A stretch of 64,000 nucleotides of DNA from Alphaproteobacteria bacterium SS10 (GCA_019192455.1 JAHCML010000006.1:25-64024), one strand, 5' to 3'; shown: positions 28,398-44,262, counted from the stretch's first letter. Notes: generated by a model not told the origin, from the letters alone. Program-made: numbers and translations.

Positions 28398-28442
28398 AAA
28401 GTGCCTCCTATTCGGTCCTAAGCTGCGCCCGGTCTTGCGCGA

Positions 28443-29063
28443 TCAACGCGCCGCGTCAGTGGTTTGAAGAATGATGGATTGTGGCGGCGGCGGTGGATCA
28501 CCGGTACGCACGCGTTCAACGGCCAGCACACTCGGCTGGCTGCCAGATGTCGCCAGGCGGTCATTACCGGCCAGATCAGCAGGGCGGGCGGCCATCCGGC
28601 CAATCTGCTTATCCAGCGAACAACCAAGCGGTGAGCTCGCCTGCATTACATCTGGACAGTTGGGCAGCACCACATCCAAACGACGGAAGGTAGCGACAGC
28701 CCCATAGGGCTGGGCCGCGACGCCGGTGATGACAATGCGGTCACCGCTGATACCGGCATCCATGAATGCCATACGCAGCATGCGGGCATAGCGCTCTCGC
28801 TGATCACTGCTCTCGGTCGCCACAATCACATGGAGGCGGTTGCCGCCATGGCGATCATACTCATTGGCGATGGTCTTAACCGCCTGGAATAGGTCATCAC
28901 CGCCAGCCTCAAGCACCGGCTCAGGGATGGCCATCCGCTGGGCGCTTGGGGCCAGGTCCAGATACTGGTTTGGCGTGACGGTTTGATACTTCTCCTCAAC
29001 CCCAGCGCAGGCAACAATTACACCGCAGAAGAGTAAGGCGAGGCAGGCACGCAGATATTCCAT
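28443..29063 (-). CDS. cpaD: CpaD-type pilus assembly lipoprotein
   Basis: 206 aa. Lipobox 'IVACAG' is present. Operon position immediately downstream of the cpaC secretin supports the call. Confidence 0.7.
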   Translation of the reverse strand: MEYLRACLALLFCGVIVACAGVEEKYQTVTPNQYLDLAPSAQRMAIPEPVLEAGGDDLFQAVKTIANEYDRHGGNRLHVIVATESSDQRERYARMLRMAFMDAGISGDRIVITGVAAQPYGAVATFRRLDVVLPNCPDVMQASSPLGCSLDKQIGRMAARPADLAGNDRLATSGSQPSVLAVERVRTGDPPPPPQSIILQTTDAAR

Positions 29064-29077
29064 GGTCTGATCCTCCT

Positions 29078-30562
29078 TTAATCCAGCAGATAGCCAGGGG
29101 CATCGGTGGCGGCAGGGCCATCGAGACCGGTTAGTGCCTCATCGCCATAGACGGTCTTCAACCGGTCCATCATTCCAAGCTCAACGGAAGTGCTCCGTGG
29201 CGCGCTGGCGACCGGCTGCGCAATGCCATTGCGGTACGGCTTCACCAAGATCGGGGTGACCATGATCACCACCTCGGACTCATTGCGAGAGAACGCATCA
29301 GAGCGGGCAAGCTGGCCCAGCACCGGCACGTCTTTAATGCCCGGCAGACCACTCGCGTTCTTCACCCCCTCTGATTGGATCAGGCCAGCAATCATCAGGC
29401 TGCCACCGCTACCCATCTCAACCACCGTCTCAGCACGGTTTACGGTGAGTGAAGGAACTGTGGTGCCTGCCAGAACAATGGCGGCCTCATTACTAAGCGC
29501 TGATACCTCGGTGCCGAGGCGCAGTGAGATGCGGTCCTCGCTCAACACCGTCGGGGTGAAGGCAAGGGAGACACCAAAGGGCCGGAATTGAATGGTGACC
29601 CCGTCATCATCGGAATCAATCGGGATCGGGAACTCACCACCAACCAGGAACTGCGCCGTCTCGCCGGTGATCGCCGTCAGGTTTGGTTCTGCCAGCACCT
29701 GGATCAGGCCATCCTGCTCCAGGGCATTGATGATGAGGGATAGCGGGCCAAAGCCACCGGGTGAGAACAGCAACTGGCCAATACCAAACGGCGTGGCGGA
29801 CAGGCCGACCGCGGGCAGTGCGTTAAACAGGAAATCGACTGAGTTGTTTGGATCTAGGCCGTCACCAAAGTTCAGCTCAGTGCCCAACTCATAGATCGCC
29901 TCACGGCTCAACTCGACAATCCGGACCCGCAGCAGGACCTGCAGCTCACCAGCAACATCCATCATGTCGACGACATTCTCATCCGCCGTCACGAACCGGC
30001 GGGCAACCCGACGAACACGATCTGCAGCGGCGGGGGAGCTAACACTGCCCGCCAGGATCACATCGCCATTTACCGTACTAATCTCAAGCTCACGCTCTTG
30101 CGGCACGAGGCGTTGCATCGTGTTGTTGAGGGTAAGCTCATCAATCCGCACATGGATCTCAAGCCGGGTGATGATCTCCCCATCCGGGTCAAAGACGAAG
30201 ACGGTGGTGTTGCCCAGCTGACGACCCAACAGATAGATGCGACGAGGGGACGGCACACGGGCATCGGCGATGGCGCTGTCACCGACCAATATCTCGCCAG
30301 CATCGCGAGACAGCTGAATGACTTCGGCCTTGCCAAAGGTCAGCTCAATCGTTCGGAAATCGCGCGAGCCCTTGGCGAAATTGGCTGCGTGGCTATCACC
30401 AACCAGGGCGAAGAGTAGGAAGGCCAGCGCCAGAAACCCGACGGCATAGCCAAGGCCACGATGAACCCGGCGCCAGATTGTTGTGAGCGCATGATCATGC
30501 ATCAATGAAGGATCGATATGCAGGATCTCTAACCTGTTTCCCATCGCCTGTTGGTTCTGCAT
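29078..30562 (-). CDS. cpaC: CpaC secretin (type II/III secretion system secretin family)
   Basis: 494 aa with signal/TM N-terminus. A secretin C-domain pattern is present (…GGFGPLSLIINALEQDGLIQVLAEPNLTAI…VPVLGQL…). Confidence 0.9.
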   Translation of the reverse strand: MQNQQAMGNRLEILHIDPSLMHDHALTTIWRRVHRGLGYAVGFLALAFLLFALVGDSHAANFAKGSRDFRTIELTFGKAEVIQLSRDAGEILVGDSAIADARVPSPRRIYLLGRQLGNTTVFVFDPDGEIITRLEIHVRIDELTLNNTMQRLVPQERELEISTVNGDVILAGSVSSPAAADRVRRVARRFVTADENVVDMMDVAGELQVLLRVRIVELSREAIYELGTELNFGDGLDPNNSVDFLFNALPAVGLSATPFGIGQLLFSPGGFGPLSLIINALEQDGLIQVLAEPNLTAITGETAQFLVGGEFPIPIDSDDDGVTIQFRPFGVSLAFTPTVLSEDRISLRLGTEVSALSNEAAIVLAGTTVPSLTVNRAETVVEMGSGGSLMIAGLIQSEGVKNASGLPGIKDVPVLGQLARSDAFSRNESEVVIMVTPILVKPYRNGIAQPVASAPRSTSVELGMMDRLKTVYGDEALTGLDGPAATDAPGYLLD

Positions 30563-30610
30563 TAGCCGCCTTCCCTTCTTCCCCTAAAACTTACTACCGA
30601 TCAGTACCGC

Positions 30611-31504
30611 TCAATTGGTCAGCCGGACCCGCTGAACTGAGGATCCGTGATAGACCCGCACCGATGGCCCCGTGCCCGCAGACACGTAATCCTCACCGCC
30701 TGCCTCGGCTAAAGCGTTCAACCGCGCAGCCTGGGTTGCAGCTTGCAACGCTTTGGCAATACCGATGTCAGACGTGAACTTTTGACTATCTGGCCGACCG
30801 GCATCGAGGACCTGATCCGCGCTCAACGCCCGCAAGGACAGGCTTAGATCGCCCATCTGCTGTGCCAGGGTTAGCTTCTCCGCCTGCTCCTGGGTGACTG
30901 CAACGGTGACAGAGCGCGCTGGCGCTGCATCCCGGCTATCCGTCACCACCTGATCAACGGCGAGGATGCGAATGCGCTCCAGGACAGTTTCAGAGGCATG
31001 GCGGGCAACAACGGTCTGTGCGGCTTGACGATCTTCACGGTCACCTTCAATGCGCACACTGTAGGTCATCAGGACATCAACGAAGTCACCCGGGCGGACA
31101 AAACCACCGGCTGAGGTTGTAACGGAGACAGGGATGCTGATGGCACGCTGATTGGGCTCCAACGTAGCGGCCAGGAAACCAGCATCCTTATCCTTGGAGA
31201 CCAGCATGCTGGGGAAGATTGGCTCCCCCTCCAATACGGAACGGCGGAGGCGCATATTCTCAAGATTATCGACAATCTCATCACCCTTCCGGATTGCATG
31301 GCGTGGCACCAGCTCAGCCGGCCAATCCTCCCAGGTGAAATCTCCCGTGCCGAGGCCGGCGCCTGTACCCAGATTCTCATCGGCGATCATCACCGGGACC
31401 TTGGGCAGTTCAGCGGGGGCTTCCTCGCCGCTATTGCCGAGGGCCAGAACAATCATGCCAACACCGGTGCCAATTCCGATCAGTAGTGCCATGCCACGAC
31501 GCAT
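30611..31504 (-). CDS. cpaB: Flp pilus assembly protein CpaB
   Basis: 297 aa with an N-terminal TM segment. The SAF/RcpC-like pattern is present. Operon position supports the call. Confidence 0.85.
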   Translation of the reverse strand: MRRGMALLIGIGTGVGMIVLALGNSGEEAPAELPKVPVMIADENLGTGAGLGTGDFTWEDWPAELVPRHAIRKGDEIVDNLENMRLRRSVLEGEPIFPSMLVSKDKDAGFLAATLEPNQRAISIPVSVTTSAGGFVRPGDFVDVLMTYSVRIEGDREDRQAAQTVVARHASETVLERIRILAVDQVVTDSRDAAPARSVTVAVTQEQAEKLTLAQQMGDLSLSLRALSADQVLDAGRPDSQKFTSDIGIAKALQAATQAARLNALAEAGGEDYVSAGTGPSVRVYHGSSVQRVRLTN

Positions 31505-31517
31505 CGTTGCTCCTCCG

Positions 31518-32024
31518 TCAGCTCAATAGGGTCAAAATGTTTGGGATGGTCATGGCCAGCGCGCCAGCGGCGATCGCCACACCATAGGGAACGCGCCGCA
31601 TGCCAAAGCGGAAGCCGCCATCAATACCCACACCTTCCAGCCAAACCGGCAGCGGGCGGGTAGCGGATAGCAGAACAACAACTGAGAGAACGCCGCCGGC
31701 AATTGCCATCGCGATAACAAATGGCAGCGCCAAGGTTGGACCAAATAGCAGCATCAAGGCACTGATCAGCTTGCCGTCACCAGCACCCAGCCAGGTGCGT
31801 GTGAACATGAAAAAGCACACTAAGAAGGCTGCCGCCGCAACGCCGAGATGGCCGATCACCGCTCCCATTGGAATAACCCCGGTGATAACAGCCAGCGGAA
31901 ACAGGCCAGCGGTTAGCATCACCAAGCGGTTGGGAATTCGGAAGCCGCTAATGTCGTACCAGGCAGCCGCTACTACGGCAGCGCTGATCAGCAGGCTAAT
32001 GGCAATCGGAAACAATTCCGGCAT
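31518..32024 (-). CDS. cpaA: Prepilin peptidase CpaA/TadV (A24 family, short form)
   Basis: 169-aa polytopic membrane protein. The track start 32027 is TTG. The ATG is at 32022-32024. It lies immediately downstream of flp. Confidence 0.85.
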   Translation of the reverse strand: MPELFPIAISLLISAAVVAAAWYDISGFRIPNRLVMLTAGLFPLAVITGVIPMGAVIGHLGVAAAAFLVCFFMFTRTWLGAGDGKLISALMLLFGPTLALPFVIAMAIAGGVLSVVVLLSATRPLPVWLEGVGIDGGFRFGMRRVPYGVAIAAGALAMTIPNILTLLS

Positions 32025-32078
32025 CAATCAAGAACTCGCAAAGGTTGTTCGGTGGCTATTCGCAAATCTGGAAACTAG

Positions 32079-32110
32079 AAGCCCGGGCCCCTGAAGCAGG
32101 CGACCCGGGC
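32079..32110 (-). terminator. Hairpin (candidate attenuator/partial terminator) between flp pilin gene and cpaA
   Basis: gcccggg(c)cctg-aag-cagg(cga)cccgggc imperfect GC-rich hairpin. On the minus strand it is followed by the U-rich 'ttctagtttccagatttg'. Confidence 0.4.
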
Positions 32111-32146
32111 CAATAGTGTGGTCGTTAAACCGTTTGGGTGATGGGC

Positions 32147-32353
32147 TTAGGTGCCATCACCACCGCCGCCGCCACCGCCGCCAGCTTGGGCGCCTTGGAC
32201 TTCTTCAGCGATACCGGTGAATGTCTCTTCGAGGGCCGGGCCAAGTAGCTGCAAGCCGCCGAGAACGGCCAATGACACCAGCGCCACAATTAGTCCGTAT
32301 TCAATTGCTGTGGCACCATCTTCTTGTGCCAAAAACTGTCTTAATGACGTCAT
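32147..32353 (-). CDS. flp: Flp/Fap family type IVb pilin with C-terminal poly-Gly tail
   Basis: 68 aa. Flp motif 'G|ATAIEYGLIVALVSLAVL' is present. The C-terminus is '…AQAGGGGGGGGDGT', encoded by a (GGC/GGT)8 repeat at 32157-32183. Confidence 0.85.
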   Translation of the reverse strand: MTSLRQFLAQEDGATAIEYGLIVALVSLAVLGGLQLLGPALEETFTGIAEEVQGAQAGGGGGGGGDGT

Positions 32354-32647: not shown

Positions 32648-33361
32648 TCAGCGTTCGGTGTTACCGCTGGCATCACCAAGGCCACCAGCGCTCGGGTTCA
32701 TCCCGGCTTGTGGGGCTGGTGCCACTTGTGGCTGGGCACGCGACATGGCGGCCGCACTAACCCGTTGGAACGCGGCAACCCGCTTATCAATCGCGACCGA
32801 GGGACCGGCATCAAGTGCGGCCTCATATGGGACCTGCCGGATACCAGCTGACATCGCCTGCTTCATATCGCGGACAGCGGCGATGGTTTTGTTAAGCGCC
32901 TGCTCAAGGTGTTTACCTTGCTTCTCGCGCTTTTTAACTTCCTTACCAGCTTCACCGATCGCCTTCTTGACCTGTTTGGCGGCATTCTTGAAGCCATTGT
33001 CTTTTCGAAGGCTGTTCCAAATACCGAATAGCTGCTCTCGGCTGTTCCAAAGCGCCTCATCCTCGGCAGAGGCAGCGCCCTTCTTCTTCCGGCGTTTCTT
33101 CGGCTGGCCGGTTTCCAAATCCTCTGGCTTTGCCTCCCCATCCCGCACGCGGTCAAAGCGGTCTTCTGCTTCCTGGAGCTGACCCTCAGACCAAATCTTT
33201 GCCAAACGATGGGGATTGGACAGGCGGCGATCGGCACGGCGACCGACATAGCTTAACTGGTCTTGGTTCCTATCAGCCTCACGCTGAATCTCGCCAACCA
33301 GACGGGTGGCTTCCTCAACCACCTTATAAAGCTCGATATTCTTGCCTTGAGGTTTCGCCAT
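32648..33361 (-). CDS. Hypothetical highly charged protein (Lys/Arg/Glu-rich, KKRRKKKG patch)
   Basis: 237 aa with ATG at 33359-33361. No recognisable domain. It lies immediately upstream of the flp promoter and downstream of a radical SAM gene. Confidence 0.5.
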   Translation of the reverse strand: MAKPQGKNIELYKVVEEATRLVGEIQREADRNQDQLSYVGRRADRRLSNPHRLAKIWSEGQLQEAEDRFDRVRDGEAKPEDLETGQPKKRRKKKGAASAEDEALWNSREQLFGIWNSLRKDNGFKNAAKQVKKAIGEAGKEVKKREKQGKHLEQALNKTIAAVRDMKQAMSAGIRQVPYEAALDAGPSVAIDKRVAAFQRVSAAAMSRAQPQVAPAPQAGMNPSAGGLGDASGNTER

Positions 33362-33386: not shown

Positions 33387-34637
33387 TTAATAGAGAACGG
33401 GCGCCGCATCACCGGTAATGGCGCGAATGCGGGGCTGATTCTCTAGCACCCAGTTAACGTAACGGCTGGCGCCGAAACAATCATCATCGGCGCGATTATC
33501 CTTCCAAAACTCCATGATGCATTTGTCGCTGTGGTCGCACTCCATGCATTCAGGGTTCTGGTTACGCAGCACTTGCCGGCGCAGGTAACGACGGCGCGCT
33601 GGTGAGGTCAGGATCTCTTCAAAGTCCTGCTCAAAAATATTGCCAAACTCGCGCATGAACTCTTTCCAGCCATCGCGGTAGTCCGGCAGGACAAAGTCGC
33701 CATTGGGCAGCAGGAACAGCGTCTGGCCAGCGATATTGGCCAAATGCGGTGTCTCGGCCTGGTGGGCGATGAAGCGCATCTGCCCGATCTCTGGCGCCGG
33801 CACGCCATCCTTGCGCAGCTTCAGCCAGTACTCGGACAGCCCGATCATGAAGTCGCTGTATTCATTCATGCGCGGAGCAAAATCACCGTAAGCGCCCGTG
33901 GAGTTCTGATCATTCCACATGAAGGGAAGCCAACTGGTTTCCGCCACACCGATATCGGTGAGGTAATCCAGGGTTTCTTCCGGCCCCTGATCAATTAGCT
34001 CACGGTTAACAACGCTGATCGTTGAGAGGCGTAGACCGGAATTCACAACCGCGCGGGATCGTTCATCCCATTTGCGCATATAGCCCTTACCGCGCATAAG
34101 GCCGTCGTAAGAGCTTTGAACCTCGCCCTCACCATAACGGTCAAAGAGGGCAAACCAATCATCCTTCACCCCAACCAGGGCAGTCAGAACGGTATGCTTG
34201 GTCCGATATCCTTCAGCTTCTGAGAAGACGCCATTGATCGCGTCAGCCGCACTGGTGAAATAATCCTGGCCCATAGAGGTCGGCTCACCGCCATACCAAT
34301 AGCCCACCACGGTTTTCTGGGCGATCTGCTGGTCACGGTAGTATTTATCGACCTTCTCACAGGTCATCCGCAGGTTCTCGACCGTCATCACGGTCTTATC
34401 CTTGCGTTGCTCAAGGCTGAGGTAGCAATGCGGACAGCGGAGCTTACAAAACAAGCTCGGCATCAGCGTGAAGATGAAGTAACCCTGCTCAATACTCACC
34501 AATTGGCGTTGATCGCCGGTCCCGCTTAAGGGGGATGGCGCGACGCCAGGCATGGGCTGGGGCGTGTTTAAGCCAGTTTCAGCAAGGAAAGGGCTATTGC
34601 TTAGCTGTGGGGTTGGTCCACCAAACGACACTGTCAT
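33387..34637 (-). CDS. Radical SAM/SPASM domain protein (anSME/peptide-maturase-like), paralog 4
   Basis: 416 aa. 'CKLRCPHCY' = CX3CX2C at residue ~64. C-terminal Cys cluster 'NPECMECDHSDKC…DDDC' is consistent with SPASM/twitch auxiliary Fe-S clusters. Confidence 0.85.
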   Translation of the reverse strand: MTVSFGGPTPQLSNSPFLAETGLNTPQPMPGVAPSPLSGTGDQRQLVSIEQGYFIFTLMPSLFCKLRCPHCYLSLEQRKDKTVMTVENLRMTCEKVDKYYRDQQIAQKTVVGYWYGGEPTSMGQDYFTSAADAINGVFSEAEGYRTKHTVLTALVGVKDDWFALFDRYGEGEVQSSYDGLMRGKGYMRKWDERSRAVVNSGLRLSTISVVNRELIDQGPEETLDYLTDIGVAETSWLPFMWNDQNSTGAYGDFAPRMNEYSDFMIGLSEYWLKLRKDGVPAPEIGQMRFIAHQAETPHLANIAGQTLFLLPNGDFVLPDYRDGWKEFMREFGNIFEQDFEEILTSPARRRYLRRQVLRNQNPECMECDHSDKCIMEFWKDNRADDDCFGASRYVNWVLENQPRIRAITGDAAPVLY

Positions 34638-34654
34638 GTCAGACCGGTCACCCG

Positions 34655-35368
34655 TTAAGCAGGTTGCTGATCGGTTTCGCCACCGTCAGCGGGTCCACCA
34701 TTACCCGAGTACTGATCGACCAGATCTTTCGCACAGGTTTTGGTGAATTCGTGGATTTGAGCGGTCATACGGCGCGCAAACGCCTTGAACTCTGCCTCAC
34801 CACCGAAGATGGCATAGATGTCCGCACGCAAACGATCCTTAAACGCGATCGTAAAGTCGGCATCTGACAGCGCCGACAGCCGTTGCAGGATATACGGGTC
34901 ACTCACCTCAAACTCATGATCGTCGCCGAGCAAGGTTTCGACGAAGAGATACTCGATGAAGTTCGTAACCGGCGCGAGGAACTGGCCAAAGTTGCTTTGA
35001 CCAAAATAAACCTCAGCGAATGCTTTCAATCGTTCGAAATAGGCCTGGTCTGCCTCGTCGCTGCGTTCTACCGGCGGCAGTAGAGAGAGGGAAAAGCCGG
35101 CATTAGCGGCGACGGAGACCATGTATTTCGGATCGATATCTGACTGCTCTGCTGGGATTTCCAGCACAACCTCAACGCCTGCGAGACCATAAGAGATGAT
35201 GACATCCATCAAGGTTTCGTCGATATCCCCATCCTCACCTTTGAAGATCAGGGAGATATGCTTGAGGTCAGCCGGTGGCGAGAAACTATCAACGTCAACC
35301 TCAACACCGTAGTGGAAAGGCTGGGCCGACAACTCCGCGTTATCGACAATCTCACTGAGAGCAGTCAT
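34655..35368 (-). CDS. Hypothetical acidic protein (possible partner/chaperone of the radical SAM system)
   Basis: 237 aa, rich in Asp/Glu (pI clearly acidic). No recognisable motif. ATG at 35366-35368. It is sandwiched between the precursor candidate and radical SAM paralog 4. Confidence 0.55.
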   Translation of the reverse strand: MTALSEIVDNAELSAQPFHYGVEVDVDSFSPPADLKHISLIFKGEDGDIDETLMDVIISYGLAGVEVVLEIPAEQSDIDPKYMVSVAANAGFSLSLLPPVERSDEADQAYFERLKAFAEVYFGQSNFGQFLAPVTNFIEYLFVETLLGDDHEFEVSDPYILQRLSALSDADFTIAFKDRLRADIYAIFGGEAEFKAFARRMTAQIHEFTKTCAKDLVDQYSGNGGPADGGETDQQPA

Positions 35369-35405
35369 TCAGCAATCACCAAACAAATAGAATGATGGTT
35401 ACGCG

Positions 35406-35933
35406 TTAGCGCCAACCGCGAGAGCCGTGGCAAGCACCGTGGCACGCACTGTGGCAGTTGCTGTAGCAGCTAAAGCTGTTGATCGTGCCCGACTGGCTCA
35501 ATAGACCACCCGTCGCACCGCCGCCGCCGCCGAGGACCGCATCACCACCGCCAGTCACCTGGCCGCCGACACCACTCTCATTCTGCGCGACCTGCCACTC
35601 ACCAATCGACTTGCCGTCGAAATACTCGTCGGCGATGGACTTGCCGTCGAAGGTTAGGTTGCTGGTGAAGATGTCCAAGCTTTCGCTGACCGCTTCACGA
35701 ACGCTGCGCTTGCTGACAGCGCTAGCAATGGCACGGTCAAGCTCATCGGACACGCCCGTGTCCGTGCTGACTTCAACAGCCTCATAGCTGGCCGCATGCG
35801 CAATAGCGCTGGTGGCGATTAGGGCCAAAGAGGTCGAAACGGCGACCGGGCCAACCTTAATGGCTGACTTCTTGGCTGTGCTGCTATCACCCGAACCATT
35901 GGATGGGTTTGGCATCTGGATATCGTCTGGCAT
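35406..35933 (-). CDS. Candidate modified-peptide/protein precursor: signal-peptide-like N-region, duplicated FDGKSI(A/G)(D/E) motif, Gly-rich linker and C-terminal Cys/His-rich tail
   Basis: 175 aa. Strong SD 'agagggggg' sits 6 nt before the ATG at 35931-35933. Hydrophobic segment 'VGPVAVSTSLALIATSAIAHA|AS' is signal-peptide-like. 'LTFDGKSIADEYFDGKSIGEW' is a duplicated motif. The C-terminus is 'GGGGGATGGLLSQSGTINSFSCYSNCHSACHGACHGSRGWR'. An AT-rich intergenic region with promoter-like elements lies upstream. Confidence 0.6.
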   Translation of the reverse strand: MPDDIQMPNPSNGSGDSSTAKKSAIKVGPVAVSTSLALIATSAIAHAASYEAVEVSTDTGVSDELDRAIASAVSKRSVREAVSESLDIFTSNLTFDGKSIADEYFDGKSIGEWQVAQNESGVGGQVTGGGDAVLGGGGGATGGLLSQSGTINSFSCYSNCHSACHGACHGSRGWR

Positions 35934-36095
35934 TGTGCCCCCCCTCTAGAACTGCCTTACATCATCCGAACAGCAAAAAACGACCAAAATCCGGATGGAT
36001 TAAAACTAACTACCACCAACAATACACGATTTATAAATATCTCGCACGAAATTACCTGATCACAAATACGCGCTTTGAGGCATTTTGCGGCGGTT

Positions 36096-37211
36096 TTAGG
36101 CTACATCTTCGTGTGATGGCGCTGCGACCAAATCCCAGGTCTGCTGGAACAAACGCTGCCCACCTGAGCACTCACCGGACCCATCATCGTAAAGGCTCGC
36201 CAAACAGCCAGAGGAGCAAACCTTACGGAACTGGCAGGTTTGGCAGTCCCATTGGCGCTCTGCCCGCGCTTGCTCATAGTCACCAAAGGCAAGTATTTCG
36301 GTCGCGCGCTTATTATCGATCTCAGACGTAACGGCAGTACAACCGGCCTTGTAGCCATTAGCATCGATCGTGTGGAACTTAGTGTCGCAACTACCAGACC
36401 AACAGCCATAGCCCCCGGCTTCACCGGCCTGAAGACGATTAATGCTCTGAATCAGACCATCTAGCGGCGAGACATGTAGACGATCGCTCGCCTCCACTTG
36501 TTCGCGCGTCTCACAATAGCGCCAATAGGCCCGCATAAAGCGGTTCATCGCGGCGCTGTATTCAGCATTATTCAGGCCAACGCGGTCCCAGTTCTCTCGC
36601 GCGTAGCCGGTTTTGGTGACACGCTCGAGATGTACACGGCGTACACCTCGCTCTTCCATCATCTGGAAGAACCGATAAGGGTCGCGGAAATGCTCAACAA
36701 AGGTACGGGTAAAAGTCACGACCATATAGGGGTCGAGGCCATCAGCTAGCAGCCGCTCAAAATTATTCCAGAACCGAGATTCATAAACCTCGTTGGATTG
36801 CCGATCATTGGCGCGTAACAGCCGAATTTTGGGGTCCCAAGACACCCCAACCTCGCCGCCAAAGTACTTCTTGTAAACCGGGATCCAAGGATCGCCATAG
36901 GTCATCAGGTTGGTCTGGATACCGTGCTGCCATTGATAGTCGCCACCAGCGGCCTCAACCGTATCAATCGCTTCCGCAAGCCATTCAGCACCGAAGATTG
37001 TCGGCTCACCACCATGCCATTGCAGCAGGATATTCGAGCCCTTCGGTGCGAACTTGGTCAGCTGCTCTGGGATCGCGGCCAGATCATCCTTACCCATCTT
37101 CTTGGGGTTGGAAGGAATAAAGCAGTGCTCGCAATGAAGATTGCAGCCCTCAAAAACCCGAACGTAAACCAGGTGGTCAAAGGCTGGGGCGAAAGGCAAA
37201 CGTCCACTCAT
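36096..37211 (-). CDS. Radical SAM/SPASM domain protein, paralog 1
   Basis: 371 aa. 'CNLHCEHCF' = CX3CX2C at residue ~23. C-terminal 'GCWSGSCD…GYKAGC…CQTCQFRKVCSSGC' is SPASM-type. Confidence 0.85.
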   Translation of the reverse strand: MSGRLPFAPAFDHLVYVRVFEGCNLHCEHCFIPSNPKKMGKDDLAAIPEQLTKFAPKGSNILLQWHGGEPTIFGAEWLAEAIDTVEAAGGDYQWQHGIQTNLMTYGDPWIPVYKKYFGGEVGVSWDPKIRLLRANDRQSNEVYESRFWNNFERLLADGLDPYMVVTFTRTFVEHFRDPYRFFQMMEERGVRRVHLERVTKTGYARENWDRVGLNNAEYSAAMNRFMRAYWRYCETREQVEASDRLHVSPLDGLIQSINRLQAGEAGGYGCWSGSCDTKFHTIDANGYKAGCTAVTSEIDNKRATEILAFGDYEQARAERQWDCQTCQFRKVCSSGCLASLYDDGSGECSGGQRLFQQTWDLVAAPSHEDVA

Positions 37212-38419
37212 GCCGCTGCCCCTTCCTTGGTCTTATCGCCTGCCTTATCCGCGGCCGCTGCACCGTCGGTATCAAGCCCAGCCTGAGCGGCAGCATAGAT
37301 ATTGCTCGCGGCACTGAATTTCTCGCGAAGCGCTAAATCCAGATCCAAATAGGCAAGCAACGGTGCCTGCCCGCGATCCGTAATGAACTGCCGGATATGG
37401 GTCAGGAATGTTTTGTAGCCGGAGCACTCCACCTCACCATCTGGAACACCATTCGGTGTGATGGGGCAGCCAGAGTGGCACCAATTGCTGTTCTCACAAC
37501 CATGGCAATGGTCCCGCTTATGGCCATAGCTCTGCATGCGAAGCCATTTGCGCCGGAACGAATTCTTGGCAAAGCCTTGGAAGCCACCTTCCACATTGCC
37601 GTAATTCTCTTCCACCGTTGATTTATCCGGGCAATTATTGAGGGAGCCATCTGGCTCAACAACCACGAAGTCAGACTGGCAGGTGGTGCCCCAACGATCA
37701 CCAGGCGCCTGGAACAGCACGCCCATAATGCCGGCTTTCACAGCGCCGATGATTGGCGCCTTACCATCCCGCTCCATCCGCTCCATCACGGCATCAAAGA
37801 GGCCCATGAGGAAGTAGGAGTGCTCAAGGTTATTGGGACGATCATCAAAATACGTCTGATAGGAGTTGTAGCGGTCCAAATTGACCACCTCGAACTCGCG
37901 CTCAACAAACCAATCTACTAGCTCTTGCTCGCGGCCCAGCTCCTGCCGTGTCGGCACAACGCCAGGCACCACATTGATCCCATCACCGCGCACGCGCTCA
38001 ACCTTTTGCATCCAAAGCTTGTGGTAGTTCTCCACCGAGCCCTTGATCTGCCGTTGGCTGAAATCAATTGAGGAGCCAATCTCACGGCCACAACGCTCAA
38101 TCACCCAATCGCGATACTCATCACGCCATGGGATAAGGGATGTTTGGATCGCCTGGAAGTTATCGGGCAGGACCTTGTCCAACACCTCACCCGCTTCCCA
38201 GTACCATTCAACTGGAACCGTTAGCGGCTCACCACCATGCCAGAGGACGAGCGACGCATCCTTGCGCTGGGCCTTCTGCATATCGGCGATCAGGGTGCCT
38301 GCCTTGGCCAGCACGTCATGGCTCATCCGGAATTTATTGGCGCGCACGATCTCCGGCAGGTAGCAATGGGTGCATCCCACATTGCAGTAATTTGTCGGCT
38401 TCACATAAGCGACAATCAT
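37208..38419 (-). CDS. Radical SAM/SPASM domain protein, paralog 2
   Basis: 403 aa. 'CNVGCTHCY' is present, plus C-terminal 'CPDKS…CHGCENSNWCHSGC'. It overlaps paralog 1 (ATGA) and paralog 3 (ATGA), suggesting translational coupling. Confidence 0.85.
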   Translation of the reverse strand: MIVAYVKPTNYCNVGCTHCYLPEIVRANKFRMSHDVLAKAGTLIADMQKAQRKDASLVLWHGGEPLTVPVEWYWEAGEVLDKVLPDNFQAIQTSLIPWRDEYRDWVIERCGREIGSSIDFSQRQIKGSVENYHKLWMQKVERVRGDGINVVPGVVPTRQELGREQELVDWFVEREFEVVNLDRYNSYQTYFDDRPNNLEHSYFLMGLFDAVMERMERDGKAPIIGAVKAGIMGVLFQAPGDRWGTTCQSDFVVVEPDGSLNNCPDKSTVEENYGNVEGGFQGFAKNSFRRKWLRMQSYGHKRDHCHGCENSNWCHSGCPITPNGVPDGEVECSGYKTFLTHIRQFITDRGQAPLLAYLDLDLALREKFSAASNIYAAAQAGLDTDGAAAADKAGDKTKEGAAA

Positions 38420-39573
38420 GCGGCGATCTCGCGGTTCAGGTTGCGCTTGCGGCGCACCTCCTCGGGGTCCAGGCCGTATTTGCGGATGGCGCCATCCGCC
38501 TCACCATTGCGCACGGTCTCTTTGATGCGGTCAAAGACCATCATCCAAGCATGGCAGTAGTGGAACTTGCCGCCCAGCCCATGATTGTACAGCACAGCAT
38601 CGCGCATGCAGCCGCCCTCACACTCACCGAAGTGGCGGCAGCTTTGACAATCGAGCGGAAGGTCGACGCGACGACGGCGGATCATGGCGGCCGCCCGTGA
38701 TTTCATCAGCTCCGGAATGGTCATCTCATTGAGATTGCCAAACATGAACTCTGGATCGCCCAAATCCGCAAACTCTGAGCAGTTATAGGTATCGCCATTC
38801 GGCTCCAGGCCCAGGAAATGACCGCCGCAGGATCTGGTCCAGGGGCAGCGATTAACCTCAAGGGCAATCACCTTCTTCAGCATCTCATCGAGCGGGGTAA
38901 TGACGAAAACCGGCAGGTCTACGATCCAGCGCTCATAAAGCTCAAGCAGCATCGTGCCGTAATCATGGGGGCTAATCATTTCCCCATTACCCTCATCCCG
39001 CCCCGCCGGATACCGGTAGTTGAAGCGGAGATGCGGCGCCTTATCGCCATAGGCTAGGCTACGGTCATACATCTCATGCGCCATGGGCGCGGTTTCGGTG
39101 GTGTAGGTGCCAATGATCTTCGGATAGAAGCCATCGTCGAGCACCTCCTCTAGCCGCTTATAAAACAGGCGGGTGTAGAGGGCTGCCGAGCCCTTATAGA
39201 TGCGGTTGGTTTCATCCGGATCGAAGGATGTTGAGACCGAACCGTTGAAGATGTCTTTAAAGACGTCATACCAACGGTTGTGGTTATAGCTCAGCAGGTT
39301 CGTCTGGATTGAGAAGTTGATGTTGGGGTTCTGCGCCTTGGCATACTCCCAAGCCTGCTCATAGAAGTCAGGGCCAAGCAGCATGGGCTCACCGCCATGC
39401 CAGATAATGTAAGCCTGGTCGGTTAGATGCGGGCCAATCTTATCGAAATACCGCTTAAAATCGTCAATCGACCATTTCGGCACCCCGTCAGGGGGCGCAC
39501 TGCAATAGGTACAGGCCGCATTACAAACCTTCGTTGGTTTGGCGATTACGGTAGAGATCATGCCTAACCCCAT
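38416..39573 (-). CDS. Radical SAM/SPASM domain protein, paralog 3
   Basis: 385 aa. 'CNAACTYCS' is present, plus C-terminal 'CPWTRSCGG…CSEF…CQSCRHFGECEGGC'. Confidence 0.85.
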   Translation of the reverse strand: MGLGMISTVIAKPTKVCNAACTYCSAPPDGVPKWSIDDFKRYFDKIGPHLTDQAYIIWHGGEPMLLGPDFYEQAWEYAKAQNPNINFSIQTNLLSYNHNRWYDVFKDIFNGSVSTSFDPDETNRIYKGSAALYTRLFYKRLEEVLDDGFYPKIIGTYTTETAPMAHEMYDRSLAYGDKAPHLRFNYRYPAGRDEGNGEMISPHDYGTMLLELYERWIVDLPVFVITPLDEMLKKVIALEVNRCPWTRSCGGHFLGLEPNGDTYNCSEFADLGDPEFMFGNLNEMTIPELMKSRAAAMIRRRRVDLPLDCQSCRHFGECEGGCMRDAVLYNHGLGGKFHYCHAWMMVFDRIKETVRNGEADGAIRKYGLDPEEVRRKRNLNREIAA

Positions 39574-39671: not shown

Positions 39672-39723
39672 ACAGGATAAAAGAAATGAAAACGGGCGAC
39701 CAGCATTTTCGGCCTGGTCGCCC
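39672..39723 (-). terminator. Rho-independent terminator after the giant pilin-like gene
   Basis: Perfect 10-bp inverted repeat gggcgaccag / ctggtcgccc (39694-39703 and 39714-39723) with a 10-nt loop. On the minus strand it is followed by 'gttttcatttcttttatcc'. Confidence 0.6.
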
Positions 39724-39765
39724 GTCACATAAATGTTTGCTCGCCCTAACCCACGGGCAATCGCA

Positions 39766-42700
39766 TTACAGCTGGCAGTAAACCGTCACAACCGCAACGC
39801 CGTTTGTCATCTGACGCCATGGTGCCAGATCATTCTTCTGACGCGCTTCCATGACAAGGGTGCCACCGCCGGTCATATACACACGACCCTGGGTGTTGTT
39901 GTCATAGTCACCACCGGCAAGCTCAGTACCATCAGCTGGATTGATGTCGTCGATATCGGTAACGCGAATGACGTCATCCTGGGCCGTACCGGCACCATCA
40001 CCATCCTGAAGCTGCGTGATACGGGTCTGCGCAATCATGACCGGCGTCACCCACCATGCTGGGGTTGCAGCGTAGAAGATGGTGCCTGCGCCACCACCCG
40101 TTGGGGTCAGGCAGCGATTTCGAAGCGTTGCACTAACGGTTTGACCATCACTTAGGACCTCAACGCCAGAAACAATCAACTGCTCTGAGACGTTGGTGTC
40201 GCTCAACCAAACATCACGGCCGCGAAGATAGATATCATCAACGTCCAGGTAAGACTGATCAGCACCAAGTGGTGATGCACCGACCAGCGCACCAGCACCA
40301 AGCTTCAAGGCACCATCGGCCGCAGCTGATTCAGTAAAGAACCGCATCCGGTTTCCACCGGCAGCATTGTTCACAATGAGCGATGGCTGGGCGGCATCGC
40401 TCTCACCGCGCAAGACCACACGGTTGGTACCTGCCTGATCAAGGATCCGAACGACATTCCGGGTCGCATTTGAGACGATCTGCATCGTGTCGGTCGCTTG
40501 ACCATTATTGCGAATACCGAAGGTGTTGTTGCCATCGGAGTAAGCAATCCGACCGTCATAGTCCGCGCCGAGTGAACCGGTCCCCTTAAAATCAATGAAG
40601 GAGGTTTGGTTGTTACCGCTACCGATCTCAACACCGCCATCATTTGGATCAACGAGGAAATAGCCACCTGCGGTTGGCGTATTCGCATCAGCAGCGGACA
40701 GGCGGAACTGACCATTGTTGCTGTTCACGATTGCACGCTCGACACCATCAGCAGCACGCCAGTCCTGGACCCCGCTTGCGGTGTCAAATTGGCGCCGAAG
40801 GTTACCGGCAGCATCGTTCAACCGCTCTACACCTGCAGCGGCGTCGGTCTCGAATTCATAACGAACCGTTCCGGCAGTATCACGAACCCGAACAAACGCG
40901 CTGTTACCAGAACTCACAAACTGATTGCGGTTCCGGCCAGCTGAGTCAGACATAACCACATTGGTATCAGTGGCATTATAAATGGCAGCGAGACGATTAT
41001 TGGTACCGTCCGAGAACACCAGATTACCATCGGCACCAAAGTAGTCGGTACGGAACCGGTCATTAGCACCGTCATTCAACTCCAAGCGCCCCGAGCCCGC
41101 CCCATAGTTAGCGGCAAAGCGTGAGTTCGCGGCTGTATCGTTCCCAATGGCAATCTGACCCGTTGTTGCATCGTAATCAGCAAGAAGCCGGCGGGAACCG
41201 CCATCATTCATCGACAAGCGACCCGTGAGGGCAGTGTAGTTGGACACGAACCTAGGATCGACACCGGTTGTGTCATTACCAATAGCAATCTGACCTGTAC
41301 CCCCAGTGTAGTCGGCAAGCACGCGCTGGTTGCCACCGACATCGGCCAACTCGACACTACCGGTTGCAGCGTCATACTGGTTCATCACCCGTTGGGTCGC
41401 CCCATCATCACGCATGATGTTCTGACCAACATTCCCATCATACCGAGAGACAAAACGCTCTGCATCCGCAGCCTGGTTGACTTGATCGCGAACTCCAAAT
41501 CGACCAGCGGTTGGGCTGTCATATTGCTGAACAAAGCGCTCAACGCCGGTTTCGTCACCAACACGAACCAAACCACGAGCGTTGCTAGCGGCTGTACCAG
41601 CAGCATCGAGGCCAAACTCTGACCGCAGACGCTCGTTATTCGCATTGTCGCGCATAACGAAGGTGCCGGCCTCTGGAATGACGCCGTTACCGGCACGGTT
41701 CTGGCCATAATCGAACTGCACACGATCCCGGACACCACTGGCATCGGTCATGGTGAAGTTACCAGCATCAGGGAGAACGTTACCGGCACGGTCAAAGCCG
41801 TAATCCAGACGCATCCGCTCTTGCAGGCCGTCGTTGAAGAACGTCACGCCCCGGGCGTTACCACCTTCAGAGGTGTAAGACGTCTGGGCACGTGGGGCCG
41901 CAGCAACACCATCGCGAAGGGTAATGTTACCGGCAGTTGGCTCACGAGCGTTCAGCTCATCAAGCCCGTAATTCAGCTCAATCCGGCGGGTTGCCAGGGC
42001 GCCGGTATCGGTACCCGCGCTGATTTGGCCAGCTTGGCTGCCCGTATCGTCAAAGGTGAAGTTCCCACGCTCTATGTTGGCCGCATCATAAAGCTTAAAG
42101 CCTGGGTCGGTAGATCGAACACCAGCGGCTGGTGCCACCAGTGCGACTTCAACACCATCCACATCGAGGCCGGAATCCAGAATCGCACGCTGACCATTCG
42201 GTAGGGCACGATTTGCAGCCTCAACCCGCTGCTGGGCGCGGACACGCTCTTCAGCATCGACGAAGCCAAAGATTGCATCACCACCAACGATATTCACATT
42301 GCCGCGGGCGTAAGCAGCGTTGGCACCAGTCTGGTTGTCGTTACCAAATCGAATGACGTTCTCATTCGTTCCGGCCCCAACAGCTGGATCGAAGTTACTA
42401 TCCAGTTCACCATCAGCGTTCAAATCAACACGCGGCGCTGCAGCCGGGGCAAACACGGCAGGTGCCGGCAGTGGCACTGTATTTGTCTGGAGGCCGTTTT
42501 GCCCAACTTCCGGGTTGCCATCCTGGGCGAGCGCAGCACCATTCAGCGGCGCACCAATTTGGGCCACGTTGGCCAGGCCAAACTCACCCATATTGATGTT
42601 GGCATTCATCTGCTGGGCTTCTGGCTGCCCTGGAATGCTGTTCCGGTATAGGAAGTCGGCAACGACGCCACCTTCACCAAAGAACGCCATGGCGGCTAGG

Positions 42701-43338
42701 CCACCACGTTCTGGTGGAACACCGAGATCTGCGTTATCCAACTCCCAACCACCGAACGCACCATAGGTGGTGTTATCGGCATACACCCCAGAGACATCAG
42801 AGCCGAAACCAAGTTCGGTCGGGTCAGCAGCACGCCAACCGGCGTCGGCGCCAACGGCAGCCGCGATCTGGGCCGCAGTTGTCGGCTCAATATGTTCATA
42901 ACTGCCGGTGCCGTCATCCTCGGACACCACCTGCACCCGCAGACGCTCACCGCCAATGTTCAAAACATATATATTGAGGTCGTGGCCAAAGGCGTTCTTG
43001 CGGATATCCGCGCCATCAAAGAAACGGGGATCCAGATAACCATCAAGAGCATCATCATCCAACTGCTGGGCCGCACCGCCGGCAACCGGGTCACCGATAT
43101 CGGCATTACCGCCATCGATGATGTCGCCATAATTATCGATAACGTACGCGGCGGCGGCATCACGAACAGCGGCCAATTGCTGTGCCGTTTGTTCAGCCTT
43201 AACGCGCCGGAGGTTATCAACCTGCAGATTAGCAATCGCGCCAAGCCCAATACCAAGGGTTGCAACGCCCAGTATCGCTTCAGTCAAGCTGATACCGCGC
43301 TGCCCAAGAGGCTTTTGAGAGTTAATTTTTTTACTCAT
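39766..43338 (-). CDS. Giant type IV pilin-like protein with tandem degenerate ~22-aa repeats (putative pilus-associated adhesin/fibre)
   Basis: The track start 43353 is TTG. ATG at 43336-43338 with SD 'gaggga'. N-terminus is MSKKINSQKPLGQRG|ISLTEAILGVATLGIGLGAI: a 15-aa basic leader ending in Gly, Glu at +5 and a ~20-aa hydrophobic helix, i.e. a class III (prepilin) signal. There are ~1190 aa in total. The central ~450 aa are repeats of the form …R..(A/V).Y(D/G)..TG…..D(G/T)..N(R)… . Confidence 0.8.
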   Translation of the reverse strand: MSKKINSQKPLGQRGISLTEAILGVATLGIGLGAIANLQVDNLRRVKAEQTAQQLAAVRDAAAAYVIDNYGDIIDGGNADIGDPVAGGAAQQLDDDALDGYLDPRFFDGADIRKNAFGHDLNIYVLNIGGERLRVQVVSEDDGTGSYEHIEPTTAAQIAAAVGADAGWRAADPTELGFGSDVSGVYADNTTYGAFGGWELDNADLGVPPERGGLAAMAFFGEGGVVADFLYRNSIPGQPEAQQMNANINMGEFGLANVAQIGAPLNGAALAQDGNPEVGQNGLQTNTVPLPAPAVFAPAAAPRVDLNADGELDSNFDPAVGAGTNENVIRFGNDNQTGANAAYARGNVNIVGGDAIFGFVDAEERVRAQQRVEAANRALPNGQRAILDSGLDVDGVEVALVAPAAGVRSTDPGFKLYDAANIERGNFTFDDTGSQAGQISAGTDTGALATRRIELNYGLDELNAREPTAGNITLRDGVAAAPRAQTSYTSEGGNARGVTFFNDGLQERMRLDYGFDRAGNVLPDAGNFTMTDASGVRDRVQFDYGQNRAGNGVIPEAGTFVMRDNANNERLRSEFGLDAAGTAASNARGLVRVGDETGVERFVQQYDSPTAGRFGVRDQVNQAADAERFVSRYDGNVGQNIMRDDGATQRVMNQYDAATGSVELADVGGNQRVLADYTGGTGQIAIGNDTTGVDPRFVSNYTALTGRLSMNDGGSRRLLADYDATTGQIAIGNDTAANSRFAANYGAGSGRLELNDGANDRFRTDYFGADGNLVFSDGTNNRLAAIYNATDTNVVMSDSAGRNRNQFVSSGNSAFVRVRDTAGTVRYEFETDAAAGVERLNDAAGNLRRQFDTASGVQDWRAADGVERAIVNSNNGQFRLSAADANTPTAGGYFLVDPNDGGVEIGSGNNQTSFIDFKGTGSLGADYDGRIAYSDGNNTFGIRNNGQATDTMQIVSNATRNVVRILDQAGTNRVVLRGESDAAQPSLIVNNAAGGNRMRFFTESAAADGALKLGAGALVGASPLGADQSYLDVDDIYLRGRDVWLSDTNVSEQLIVSGVEVLSDGQTVSATLRNRCLTPTGGGAGTIFYAATPAWWVTPVMIAQTRITQLQDGDGAGTAQDDVIRVTDIDDINPADGTELAGGDYDNNTQGRVYMTGGGTLVMEARQKNDLAPWRQMTNGVAVVTVYCQL
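40600..42050 (-). repeat. Intragenic tandem degenerate repeats (~66-69 nt unit) in the giant pilin-like gene. Coordinates are approximate.
   Basis: Protein-level periodicity is present (…ADYTGGTGQIAIGNDTTGVDPRFVSNYTALTGRLSMNDGGSRRLLADYDATTGQIAIGNDTAANSRFAANYGAGSGRLELNDGANDRFRTDY…). Boundaries were estimated from residue positions, not computed. Confidence 0.5.
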
Positions 43339-43362
43339 TTCCAAATCCCTCAAACGAGAAGG

Positions 43363-44262
43363 TTAATCGCAGAAACCATCGTCAAATTCATCGCCGGTCC
43401 CCGGCAGCCCATCGGCACCAAGAACATCATCGGCTTTCTTACACACCACGTAAACCGGCACCCCATCAGGGATTAGGTTGTTCCCACCACGATCGACGAG
43501 CGGAATGTTCACGATCGCTGAAATCTCATTCGCATCCAGCGTACCGTGATCCATCGCATCATCTGGCGGATTTTGCAGATCAAAGGAACGGGCCAGCTGA
43601 ATGTGCTCAACCCCACGACGGGTTAATGTACCACCATCATTGATGCCGAAGTTAACCGTACCATTGAATGCCCGGCGAAACCCCTTAGCGAAATCATCAA
43701 CGCTGACCGTCTCCAGAAAGTTCTGCCCGCCAGGTGTGCGCGGCACGTTTTCGACAAAACCGATAATTGCCGCCACTTCACCAGTACCGGCGCCTAGGGC
43801 ATCAACCTGCTCAATAACAGCGACACGCCATGGGCCGTCCGCCGTATAGTTGGTTGGCAAAAACCGACGAACAGGATCCGCAGGCCCGAGAAAAGCCGGA
43901 TCAGTTACCGCAGCGTCTGCGTAGTCGGAATTGGTCAGGAACGTCTCGAAATCGGCGACATCCATTACCCAATAACCAGCACTTGGGTTACCGGGATCGG
44001 CAAGCTCAGCCGCAATCTCAGTCTGTGCAAGGGCAATTGGCGGACCGGGAATAGGCCAGGTGCGTTGATCAATCGCATAAGTTGAGAGGGCCGACTCAAC
44101 CGAAGCCACAAACCGGGCCATGTCACGGCCTAGACCGTGAGAGTAGGCATCATGCGGCTTCTCATAAACCAGGGGAGCATCACCTGGTGATTTCGCTTGG
44201 AATGGGTTGCTCAACGATAGGTAAAACGCGGCAACCACTAAGGCGATCAACAACGCATACAT
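43363..44262 (-). CDS. Hypothetical N-terminally membrane-anchored protein
   Basis: 299 aa. ATG at 44260-44262. N-terminus 'MYALLIALVVAAFYLSLS' is a TM segment. It ends 10 bp before the giant pilin-like gene. No known domain recognised. Confidence 0.55.
   Translation of the reverse strand: MYALLIALVVAAFYLSLSNPFQAKSPGDAPLVYEKPHDAYSHGLGRDMARFVASVESALSTYAIDQRTWPIPGPPIALAQTEIAAELADPGNPSAGYWVMDVADFETFLTNSDYADAAVTDPAFLGPADPVRRFLPTNYTADGPWRVAVIEQVDALGAGTGEVAAIIGFVENVPRTPGGQNFLETVSVDDFAKGFRRAFNGTVNFGINDGGTLTRRGVEHIQLARSFDLQNPPDDAMDHGTLDANEISAIVNIPLVDRGGNNLIPDGVPVYVVCKKADDVLGADGLPGTGDEFDDGFCD

Follow-up and report, generated by a model that had tools for sequence, protein, structure and literature searches.

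DynA, the radical S-adenosylmethionine (SAM) enzyme of the dynobactin system, forms 1-3 cross-links on Trp-x-Asn and His-x-Tyr, namely the Trp1-Asn3 and His6-Tyr8 links. In thioether synthases of the CteB type, the missing extra cysteine of auxiliary cluster I (Aux-I) leaves an open iron site for a cysteine of the substrate. Bufferins and QhpC are Cys-containing substrates which are modified in the cytoplasm and then reach the periplasm. Among triceptide enzymes, HaaB links His-C2 to Ala3-C-beta in a ring on H-A-A, and YhhB and HtkB form rings on H-N-R and H-T-K, respectively (PMC11499958). Next to the type IV pilus genes of megaplasmids, a conserved cluster labelled 'arylsulfatase/radical SAM' has been reported (Hall et al. 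2015, PMC4989453; Cazares et al. 2020, PMC7070040; a 2026 paper on pQBR, PMC13391042), and none of these papers assigned it a function. Here we describe a cassette of this kind in a stretch of 64,000 nt from Alphaproteobacteria bacterium SS10 (GCA_019192455.1, JAHCML010000006.1:25-64024), referred to below as the window. The cassette (32648-39573, minus strand) encodes four radical SAM paralogs (rSAM1 to rSAM4), a Cys-rich protein of 175 amino acids (aa) which is the candidate precursor, an acidic protein and a basic protein.

The cassette is real and conserved. We consider it probable that it is an uncharacterised radical SAM/SPASM protein-maturation system in which the C-terminal tail of the precursor is cross-linked before Sec export, and whose product works with a pilus. 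An earlier reading made from the DNA by itself (the sequence-only reading) had proposed an undescribed system for a peptide that is ribosomally synthesised and then modified post-translationally (a RiPP) or for protein modification. This interpretation is supported, and neither of the two checks it had named refutes it. Hidden Markov model (HMM) searches placed none of the four enzymes in a characterised family, all scores being far under the cut-offs, and no sulfatase or quinohemoprotein subunit that could serve as substrate was found nearby. Genomes of alpha- and gammaproteobacteria, plasmids and about 66 metagenomic loci keep the Cys-rich gene tightly together with the radical SAM genes and preserve the gene order. 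The word 'undescribed' holds for the precursor, which has no family model and is described in no paper found, being unmentioned in all three megaplasmid papers; it does not hold for the gene cluster, which is already part of that literature. The sequence-only reading had also not noted that the cassette is a mobile backbone module placed almost always behind a PilV-like type IV prepilin gene, that the precursor has a Sec-type signal, or that the acidic protein is a conserved partner. Literature searches on the repeat motif, on radical SAM/SPASM enzymes with pili and on Sec signals with SPASM enzymes found nothing that describes this system. Its distinguishing points are a new precursor family, an unusual number of paralogs per substrate, a predicted Sec-exported protein as substrate and linkage to a type IV minor pilin gene.

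The 175-aa protein ends in CYSNCHSACHGACHGSRGWR, and the tail ...SFSCYSNCHSACHGACHGSRGWR quoted in the sequence-only reading is found exactly at this C-terminus. The core is CYSN-CHSA-CHGA-CHGSRGWR, and all four cysteines of the protein lie in this tail. Residues about 27-50 form a Sec-like signal or hydrophobic helix and residues 63-92 a helical hairpin; a Gly-rich disordered linker and the core follow. In an AlphaFold2 (AF2) model with a predicted local distance difference test (pLDDT) of 53.6, the N-terminal helix and the hairpin 63-92 (pLDDT about 70-75) are formed and the rest is disordered; the predicted anatomy matches a leader followed by a core and is unlike a globular protein.

A profile search that covered 1.84 billion cluster representatives returned 262 family members at E <= 1e-3, almost all of 115-190 aa, and a word-seeded search gave 82 precursor homologs. 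Aligned homologs are 25-74% identical to the window precursor, most under 45%, whereas the tail is invariant, with invariant alignment columns at C156, C160, C164, H165, A167, C168 and HGSRGWR. In the 202 repeat-carrying representatives the tail is built of four-residue units, C-[H/Y]-x-[A/N], which are present in 3-13 copies and most commonly in 4. More than 95% of these 202 end exactly in CH[GSA][SA]R[GS]WR, and a D-[S/F]-[T/S] motif lies at most 25 residues upstream of the repeat in 130 of them. One family member, P0071, has 13-14 repeats in 229 aa. Three metagenomic loci (L038, L042 and L048) apparently carry two tandem precursor open reading frames (ORFs), judged by ORF labels.

Within the tail, units of the Tyr type (C-Y-x-N) precede units of the His type (C-H-x-A). 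Repeat positions 2 and 4 were compared in 146 distinct tails, in counts that ignore shared ancestry, and gave His-Ala 219 times, Tyr-Asn 153, His-Asn 27 and Tyr-Ala 14. Y-x-N and H-x-A/S units are present and co-vary, and the His-Ala and Tyr-Asn coupling at i/i+2 is what a 1-3 side-chain cross-link predicts. The unit that closes the repeat, C-H-G-S-R, comes close to the sulfatase motif C-x-P/A-x-R and holds one His-Xaa-Ser, so that the earlier statement that the core has no His-Xaa-Ser repeats and no CxPxR was too strong.

A signal heuristic found an N-terminal hydrophobic segment in 177 of the 187 full-length members, typically ending in AMA, AQA or AHA. This AxA-type end looks like that of a Sec signal. 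We also considered the precursor as a type IV prepilin or Flp-like protein and rejected this, since it lacks the Gly leader end and Glu+5; the segment reads [IV][AV]VS[AT]S..., with Ser where a prepilin has Glu, and the AxA-type end fits Sec better.

All four enzymes have CX3CX2C near the N-terminus, as the sequence-only reading had stated, together with a GGEP SAM-binding motif, and all match Radical_SAM and/or SPASM models of Pfam and NCBIfam (PF04055 matches). The C-terminal SPASM Cys clusters it had assigned to all four are complete in three. The full motif CX9-15GX4C...CX2CX5CX3C...C (TIGR04085/PF13186) is present in rSAM3, rSAM2 and rSAM1, while in rSAM4 the Aux-I cysteines are missing, as is the last of the four in CX2CX5CX3C, and CX2CX5C...C is retained. 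The C-terminal region of rSAM4 is a partial, degenerate SPASM or twitch-like domain, which PF13186 nonetheless matches; this enzyme also has a Pro/Gly-rich N-terminal extension of about 55 aa. rSAM3 and rSAM1 have 8 SPASM-region cysteines including an extra eighth Cys, as in the anaerobic sulfatase-maturating enzyme (anSME). rSAM2 has a 7-Cys SPASM motif without the extra upstream (Aux-I) Cys and, by analogy, may have the open site arrangement of CteB.

Pairwise identity among the four enzymes is 22-28%, yet orthologs of each elsewhere are 43-91% identical. Orthologs of rSAM3 are 50-91% identical in Agrobacterium rubi and in the loci L006 and L019, those of rSAM2 44-79% identical, and those of rSAM4 (label R4), which stand at the cassette end in many loci, 52-79% identical. 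Such low mutual identity points to old paralogs, not to a recent tandem duplication, and its combination with well-kept orthologs argues that they were retained for separate jobs.

In NCBIfam all four enzymes belong to the SPASM peptide-maturase clade without a RiPP recognition element (RRE) domain, the best matches being DynA, TIGR04083, anSME, AmcB, GrrM/OscB, YhhB and CbpB. rSAM3 scored 134 bits with DynA, 132 with TIGR04083 and 120 with anSME, and its SPASM domain was above the cut-off of the domain model. DynA (NF041298) was the top match for three of the four enzymes, with 58-134 bits against a cut-off of 450, and DarE (NF038005) gave 26-66 bits against 650. The anSME model (TIGR03942) gave 120, 56, 60 and 70 bits for the four enzymes against 349. 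The triceptide synthases XyeB (TIGR04496), GrrM (TIGR04261), FxsB (TIGR04269), YhhB (NF041707) and AmcB (NF041718) gave at best 52-60 bits against 310-450. Scores were lower still for QhpD (22-38 bits, cut-off 453), HxsB (37, cut-off 370), HxsC (36, cut-off 268), SCIFF (26, cut-off 425) and MftC (41, cut-off 265), and the CXXX-repeat maturase TIGR04115 matched rSAM2 alone (17 bits, cut-off 350). No NCBIfam model for the cognate precursors of the SCIFF, His-Xaa-Ser, QhpD and mycofactocin systems was matched. The nearest sequence of rSAM3 in the PDB is anSMEcpe (4k36, E = 5e-13), and rSAM1 had no match among PDB sequences.

The order rSAM3-rSAM2-rSAM1-precursor-acidic protein is kept in about 80 loci and was found in nearly all compared loci long enough to show gene order. 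The comparison covered A. rubi, L006 (a 319-kb contig), Thalassospira xianhensis, Cysteiniphilum litorale, Methylococcales, Roseovarius, metagenome-assembled genomes (MAGs) of Hyphomicrobiales and 66 metagenomic loci. In nearly all loci rSAM1 lies directly upstream of the precursor, and the body of the precursor diverges while the enzymes keep the 43-91% identity to their window counterparts. Loci differ in what follows the acidic protein. In alphaproteobacterial cassettes two SPASM enzymes are inserted before the rSAM4 ortholog, and megaplasmid versions have 3-6 extra radical SAM/SPASM genes, a phosphoenolpyruvate (PEP)-utilising enzyme of about 1150 aa and a 2-oxoglutarate (2OG)-Fe(II) oxygenase. 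Extended cassettes of the latter kind lie at 15731-28935 in the pQBR103 locus and at 16531-31071 in the pPABL048 locus (L016 and L018). The extra radical SAM genes of pQBR103 were scanned and belong to the same anSME/DynA/cyclophane-like clade. The PEP-utilising enzyme and the oxygenase hint at further tailoring, such as phosphorylation or hydroxylation.

Relatives of rSAM1 were found by tblastn on 147 plasmids, 130 of them from Pseudomonas, at 47-56% identity. The carriers include pQBR103, pMPPla107 and many IncP-2 multidrug-resistance megaplasmids, in which the cassette is part of the backbone.

Transcription and translation signals agree in most points with the sequence-only reading. Its seven co-directional ORFs all lie, on the minus strand, at the coordinates it had given, and both of the ATGA overlaps it had noted are real, the start of rSAM2 overlapping the stop of rSAM3 and the start of rSAM1 the stop of rSAM2. 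The strong Shine-Dalgarno (SD) sequence it had seen before the Cys-rich gene was found as the G-rich GAGGGGGGG, 5 nt ahead of the ATG. A promoter of its own for this gene was not borne out: a consensus scan found no sigma-70 consensus promoter upstream of it. In relatives the precursor gene often overlaps rSAM1, and a promoter of its own is therefore not something that the family conserves. The hairpin that separates rSAM3 from the prepilin gene (Table 1) has a perfect 12-13 bp stem, a 10-nt loop and a T-rich tail, with a folding energy of -27.1 kcal/mol (z = -5.5) that 0 of 200 shuffles equalled; it escaped the consensus scan because of the loop-length limit of that scan.

The gene of the acidic protein is kept immediately downstream of the precursor gene across loci. 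AF2 predicted for this protein, with a pLDDT of 87.5 and a predicted template modelling score (pTM) of 0.80, an alpha/beta partial barrel followed by helices, which is a lead that it might be a degenerate radical SAM core acting as a non-catalytic partner. Orthologs of the basic protein were found in L012, L019 and L020 only (55-61% identical), and these three loci form with the window a sub-clade that has both rSAM4 and the basic protein. Pfam and NCBIfam scans gave no match for the precursor, the acidic and basic proteins, or the upstream proteins of 209, 299 and 1195 aa.

The window cassette sits between a PilV-like prepilin gene and a co-directional Tad locus (Table 1). The N-terminus of the 1195-aa protein, ...QRG|ISLTEAILGVATLGIGLGAIANL, is prepilin-like, with Glu at +5, and BLAST aligned the protein with a Shufflon_N/PilV-like protein of A. 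rubi at 26% identity over 263 aa. Its ortholog in L019 has the same G|ISLTE motif. Most related loci have a prepilin gene at the position upstream of rSAM3, usually as the PilV-like last gene of a type IVb pilus operon, and a strict prepilin motif (G|xxxxE plus a hydrophobic helix) was found directly upstream of rSAM3 in 17 of 33 loci. In all three annotated plasmid examples, which are typed MPF_I, the last gene of the type IVb pilus operon encodes a PilV-like prepilin and three radical SAM genes follow immediately. This operon contains secretin, GspE-type ATPase, PilR/T2SSF and pilin genes, and PilO2 is annotated in pMPPla107. The small protein encoded after the plasmid radical SAM genes ends in ...CHGACHG[SA]RGWR, and the pMPPla107 tail is ...CYSNCHGSRSWR. 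Searched against a limited BLAST reference set, about 25 of the 31 loci with at least 9 kb upstream have pilus genes near the cassette.

Upstream of the PilV-like gene, u299 and u209 encode paralogs (28% identical), and an ortholog of u209 lies at the same position in L019 (62% identical). Their C-terminal Cys pair is reminiscent of a pilin D-region, and they may be minor pilins without a recognisable leader. All 10 genes of the module, u209 through the basic protein, are found again in L019, where the module adjoins an IcmW gene instead of a Tad locus. It is therefore the PilV-like gene that is the constant partner of the cassette. The PilV-like proteins of the window and L019 are 35% identical and the enzymes 78-91% identical.

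We propose the following model. In the cytoplasm, rSAM1 to rSAM4 would act non-redundantly by 5'-deoxyadenosyl radical chemistry and introduce intramolecular cross-links into the C-terminal repeat, (C-Y-x-N)n(C-H-x-A)m-C-H-G-S-R-G-W-R, with the acidic protein probably serving as a non-catalytic partner or chaperone. The likeliest cross-links would be rings of three residues in which a His or Tyr side chain is joined to the C-beta of residue i+2, as in triceptides and dynobactin. The interleaved cysteines could stay as they are, as an array that binds metal or forms disulfides, or be turned into thioethers. The modified protein would then be exported by Sec through its N-terminal signal and act in the envelope or outside the cell, together with a type IV filament and the PilV-like minor pilin or adhesin. 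It could, for example, be a pilus-associated (tip) or pilus-secreted factor, by analogy with TcpF and CofJ, which are factors of type IVb pili. What the analysis establishes is the class of the enzymes, the precursor family with its motif grammar, and the synteny of the precursor gene with the genes of the enzymes, the acidic protein and the pilus; the tail as substrate, the kind of cross-link, the export after modification and, from synteny, the pilus-related role are inferred.

Several observations weigh against this model. No enzyme reaches the cut-off of any characterised NCBIfam equivalog family, and the kind of cross-link is guessed from motif logic and weak HMM similarity, the coupling counts given above being uncorrected for shared ancestry. 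A Rhodospirillaceae MAG (L011, 6500-13659) has a PilV-like gene and, directly behind it, the genes of the precursor and the acidic protein with two different radical SAM genes; it lacks R1-R3 at the usual place, yet its tail has both Tyr- and His-type repeats. Conversely, pQBR103 has R1-R3 and only His-type repeats. We had considered one enzyme type per repeat type, and rejected this mapping because these two loci break it. Signal peptides are not usually as conserved as the hydrophobic N-terminus of the precursor, which could instead be an anchor. What ties the cassette to a pilus is synteny; about 6 of the 31 long loci have no pilus gene detectable with the limited reference set, and the Tad adjacency in the window may be accidental or secondary.

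A more specific form of the model, which we put forward tentatively and regard as a long shot, is that up to eight radical SAM enzymes convert the tail to a module that is rigid and polycyclic, with Cys residues lying between His/Tyr cyclophanes. This new kind of pilus accessory would be displayed or secreted via the PilV-like minor pilin of a type IVb/Tad pilus and act in cell-cell contact, e.g. when MPF_I megaplasmids recognise recipients or stabilise mating pairs. It might be a metal-bridged adhesive or, by analogy with darobactin/dynobactin-BamA, a beta-strand mimic that engages outer-membrane proteins.

A stand-alone secreted RiPP-like product, such as an antimicrobial or a metallophore, is in our judgement unlikely; the pilus genes would then be mere co-travellers on the same mobile backbone. 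That the nearest HMMs belong to the antibiotics dynobactin and darobactin would suit such a product, as would the backbone position in MPF_I megaplasmids and the close relative L019, which keeps the module without a Tad locus. The GC content is 0.54-0.565 at 32-50 kb against 0.58-0.61 in the flanks, which hints that the cassette and its neighbours were acquired horizontally as an island; the window has no tRNA gene, and no obvious integrase was seen in it. However, the window cassette has no peptidase, ABC exporter or immunity gene, and the mature product would be of about 100-125 aa; both points favour a modified protein over a secreted peptide of small size. The cassette, in elements of 0.4-1 Mb, stands right behind the PilV-like gene and not anywhere else, and this gene is retained even in the chromosomal context of the window.

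Chemistry of the anSME kind would convert Cys, especially the last one in C-H-G-S-R, to formylglycine and give an aldehyde tail without cyclophane or thioether rings. We think this distinctly improbable. It is rSAM3 that comes closest to the solved anSMEcpe and scores best on TIGR03942, an eighth Cys, which in anSME completes the ligation of Aux I, is present in both rSAM3 and rSAM1, and the almost invariant C-H-G-[S/A]-R at the end of the tail is similar to C-x-P/A-x-R. All scores, however, are far under the anSME cut-off, Gly replaces the Pro/Ala of the sulfatase motif, and no sulfatase fold was found in the window, nor a sulfatase signature in any of its frames. Moreover, a single oxidation needs no 4-8 paralogs and leaves the His-Ala/Tyr-Asn coupling unexplained.

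Very improbable, finally, is an unmodified metal- or Fe-S-binding tail of a periplasmic protein, with the enzymes acting on the PilV-like pilin, the major pilin or a small molecule: the Cys/His alternation is spaced suitably for chelation, the PilV-like gene is equally syntenic and the connection of enzymes to tail is an indirect one, but the enzymes fall in the peptide-maturase clade, the precursor gene is wedged among their genes and often overlaps rSAM1, the tail is disordered, extreme C-terminal, invariant and RiPP-core-like, and the PilV-like proteins diverge fast, with no shared conserved Cys/aromatic motif seen in them.

Table 1. Features of the cassette, its upstream module and the adjoining Tad locus, in window coordinates
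Feature	Position	Strand	Description and basis
u209	44552..45181	(-)	209 aa; N-terminal hydrophobic helix, C-terminal Cys pair; gene 1 of the conserved 10-gene module
u299	43363..44262	(-)	299 aa; u209 paralog; N-terminal hydrophobic helix, C-terminal Cys pair
PilV-like prepilin-type protein	39766..43353	(-)	1195 aa; prepilin N-terminus and BLAST
Intrinsic-terminator-like hairpin	39679..39725	(-)	Between prepilin gene and rSAM3; RNA fold
rSAM3	38416..39573	(-)	385 aa; radical SAM/SPASM; NCBIfam, Pfam, Cys pattern
rSAM2	37208..38419	(-)	403 aa; radical SAM/SPASM; NCBIfam, Pfam, Cys pattern
rSAM1	36096..37211	(-)	371 aa; radical SAM/SPASM; NCBIfam, Pfam, Cys pattern
Precursor/substrate candidate (Cys-rich)	35406..35933	(-)	175 aa; core at nt 35409-35468
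Acidic partner protein	34655..35368	(-)	237 aa; pI 4.1; one Cys
rSAM4	33387..34637	(-)	416 aa; radical SAM, degenerate SPASM
Basic protein	32648..33361	(-)	237 aa; pI 9.85; no Cys; Lys/Glu/Arg-rich
Tad (type IVc) locus, flp to tadC	23274..32353	(-)	Pfam on identical Logan contig
flp	32147-32353	(-)	Tad locus
Prepilin peptidase	31518-32027	(-)	Tad locus
RcpC/CpaB	30611-31504	(-)	Tad locus
Secretin	29078-30562	(-)	Tad locus
CpaD	28443-29063	(-)	Tad locus
CpaE-like	27117-28397	(-)	Tad locus
CpaF ATPase	25294-27099	(-)	Tad locus
TadB	24234-25256	(-)	Tad locus
TadC	23274-24227	(-)	Tad locus

As shown in Table 1, the Tad locus is complete from flp to tadC, and its adjacency suggests a possible functional tie to the cassette. 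Unusually, the Flp pilin ends in a poly-Gly tail, ...GAQAGGGGGGGGDGT; the linker of the precursor is also Gly-rich. The intergenic tract of about 290 bp between the basic gene and flp (32354-32647) is extremely AT-rich, with AAAAATA/TTTATTT runs, and is probably the regulatory region of Tad/flp. On the other side, the genes beyond 46.9 kb are housekeeping genes. A 692-aa protein encoded at 49655-51733 (minus strand) has a sub-threshold protein-kinase match of 19.6 bits and adjoins a 193-aa protein without a family match. In two related loci, chromosomal or metagenomic, genes of a Dot/Icm-type type IVB secretion system (T4BSS) lie within 10 kb of the cassette (IcmW in L019, 17619-18158; DotI/IcmL in L006, 5524-6195), which fits carriage on MPF_I-type integrative or conjugative elements.

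A likely substrate can now be named for the backbone cluster of Pseudomonas megaplasmids which the three papers describe as ancient and conserved, and whose carriers include the IncP-2 family that spreads multidrug resistance. The module reaches beyond Pseudomonas to Alphaproteobacteria, Methylococcales, Cysteiniphilum and marine metagenomes, and it is tied specifically to a PilV-like minor pilin gene and not to the conjugation machinery. The motif grammar of the precursor family is simple and testable. For RiPP enzymology, the system offers a set of 4-8 divergent SPASM paralogs for one short repeat. If the product acts with the pilus, type IV filaments and peptide cross-linking by radical SAM enzymes would be connected for the first time.

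Among described systems, bufferins, which depend on MNIO enzymes, and QhpC, which depends on the SPASM enzyme QhpD, match the proposed model in being Sec-exported RiPP-like proteins modified before export, but the window has neither a MNIO/DUF692 gene nor quinohemoprotein subunits. The CXXX-repeat system (TIGR04115) shares the CXXX period with the window substrate, whereas no NCBIfam precursor model matches the latter. The anSME enzymes (TIGR03942; PDB 4k36) resemble rSAM3 and rSAM1 in the 8-Cys SPASM region, and C-H-G-S-R is near their C-x-P/A-x-R; their substrate is a sulfatase active site, while the window has a repeat tail and no sulfatase gene.

DynA and DarE are, like the window enzymes, proteobacterial RRE-less SPASM enzymes. 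The window differs from the dynobactin and darobactin systems in having several enzymes instead of one, an unrelated core, no short heptapeptide or decapeptide and no ABC exporter. The triceptide systems (HaaB, YhhB, HtkB, XyeB, GrrM/OscB, FxsB and AmcB) likewise use RRE-less SPASM maturases, which there act on repeated aromatic-x-x motifs, and H-x-A, as in the window repeat, is a proven HaaB motif (PMC11499958). The window enzymes match AmcB, GrrM, YhhB, FxsB and XyeB weakly, 4-10 fold under the cut-offs. In contrast to triceptides, each repeat of the window tail has an invariant Cys, the predicted Sec-exported substrate is longer than 100 aa with a fixed C-terminus, and cassettes of this type have 4-8 paralogous enzymes per substrate and synteny with type IV pilus genes. 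The cluster of the Pseudomonas megaplasmids (pQBR103, pQBR57, pMPPla107 and IncP-2 plasmids such as pBT2436) is the same cassette, with orthologous R3-R2-R1, precursor and downstream partner after a type IVb operon. Compared with it, the window version is chromosomal and shorter, has rSAM4 and the basic protein, and abuts a Tad locus.

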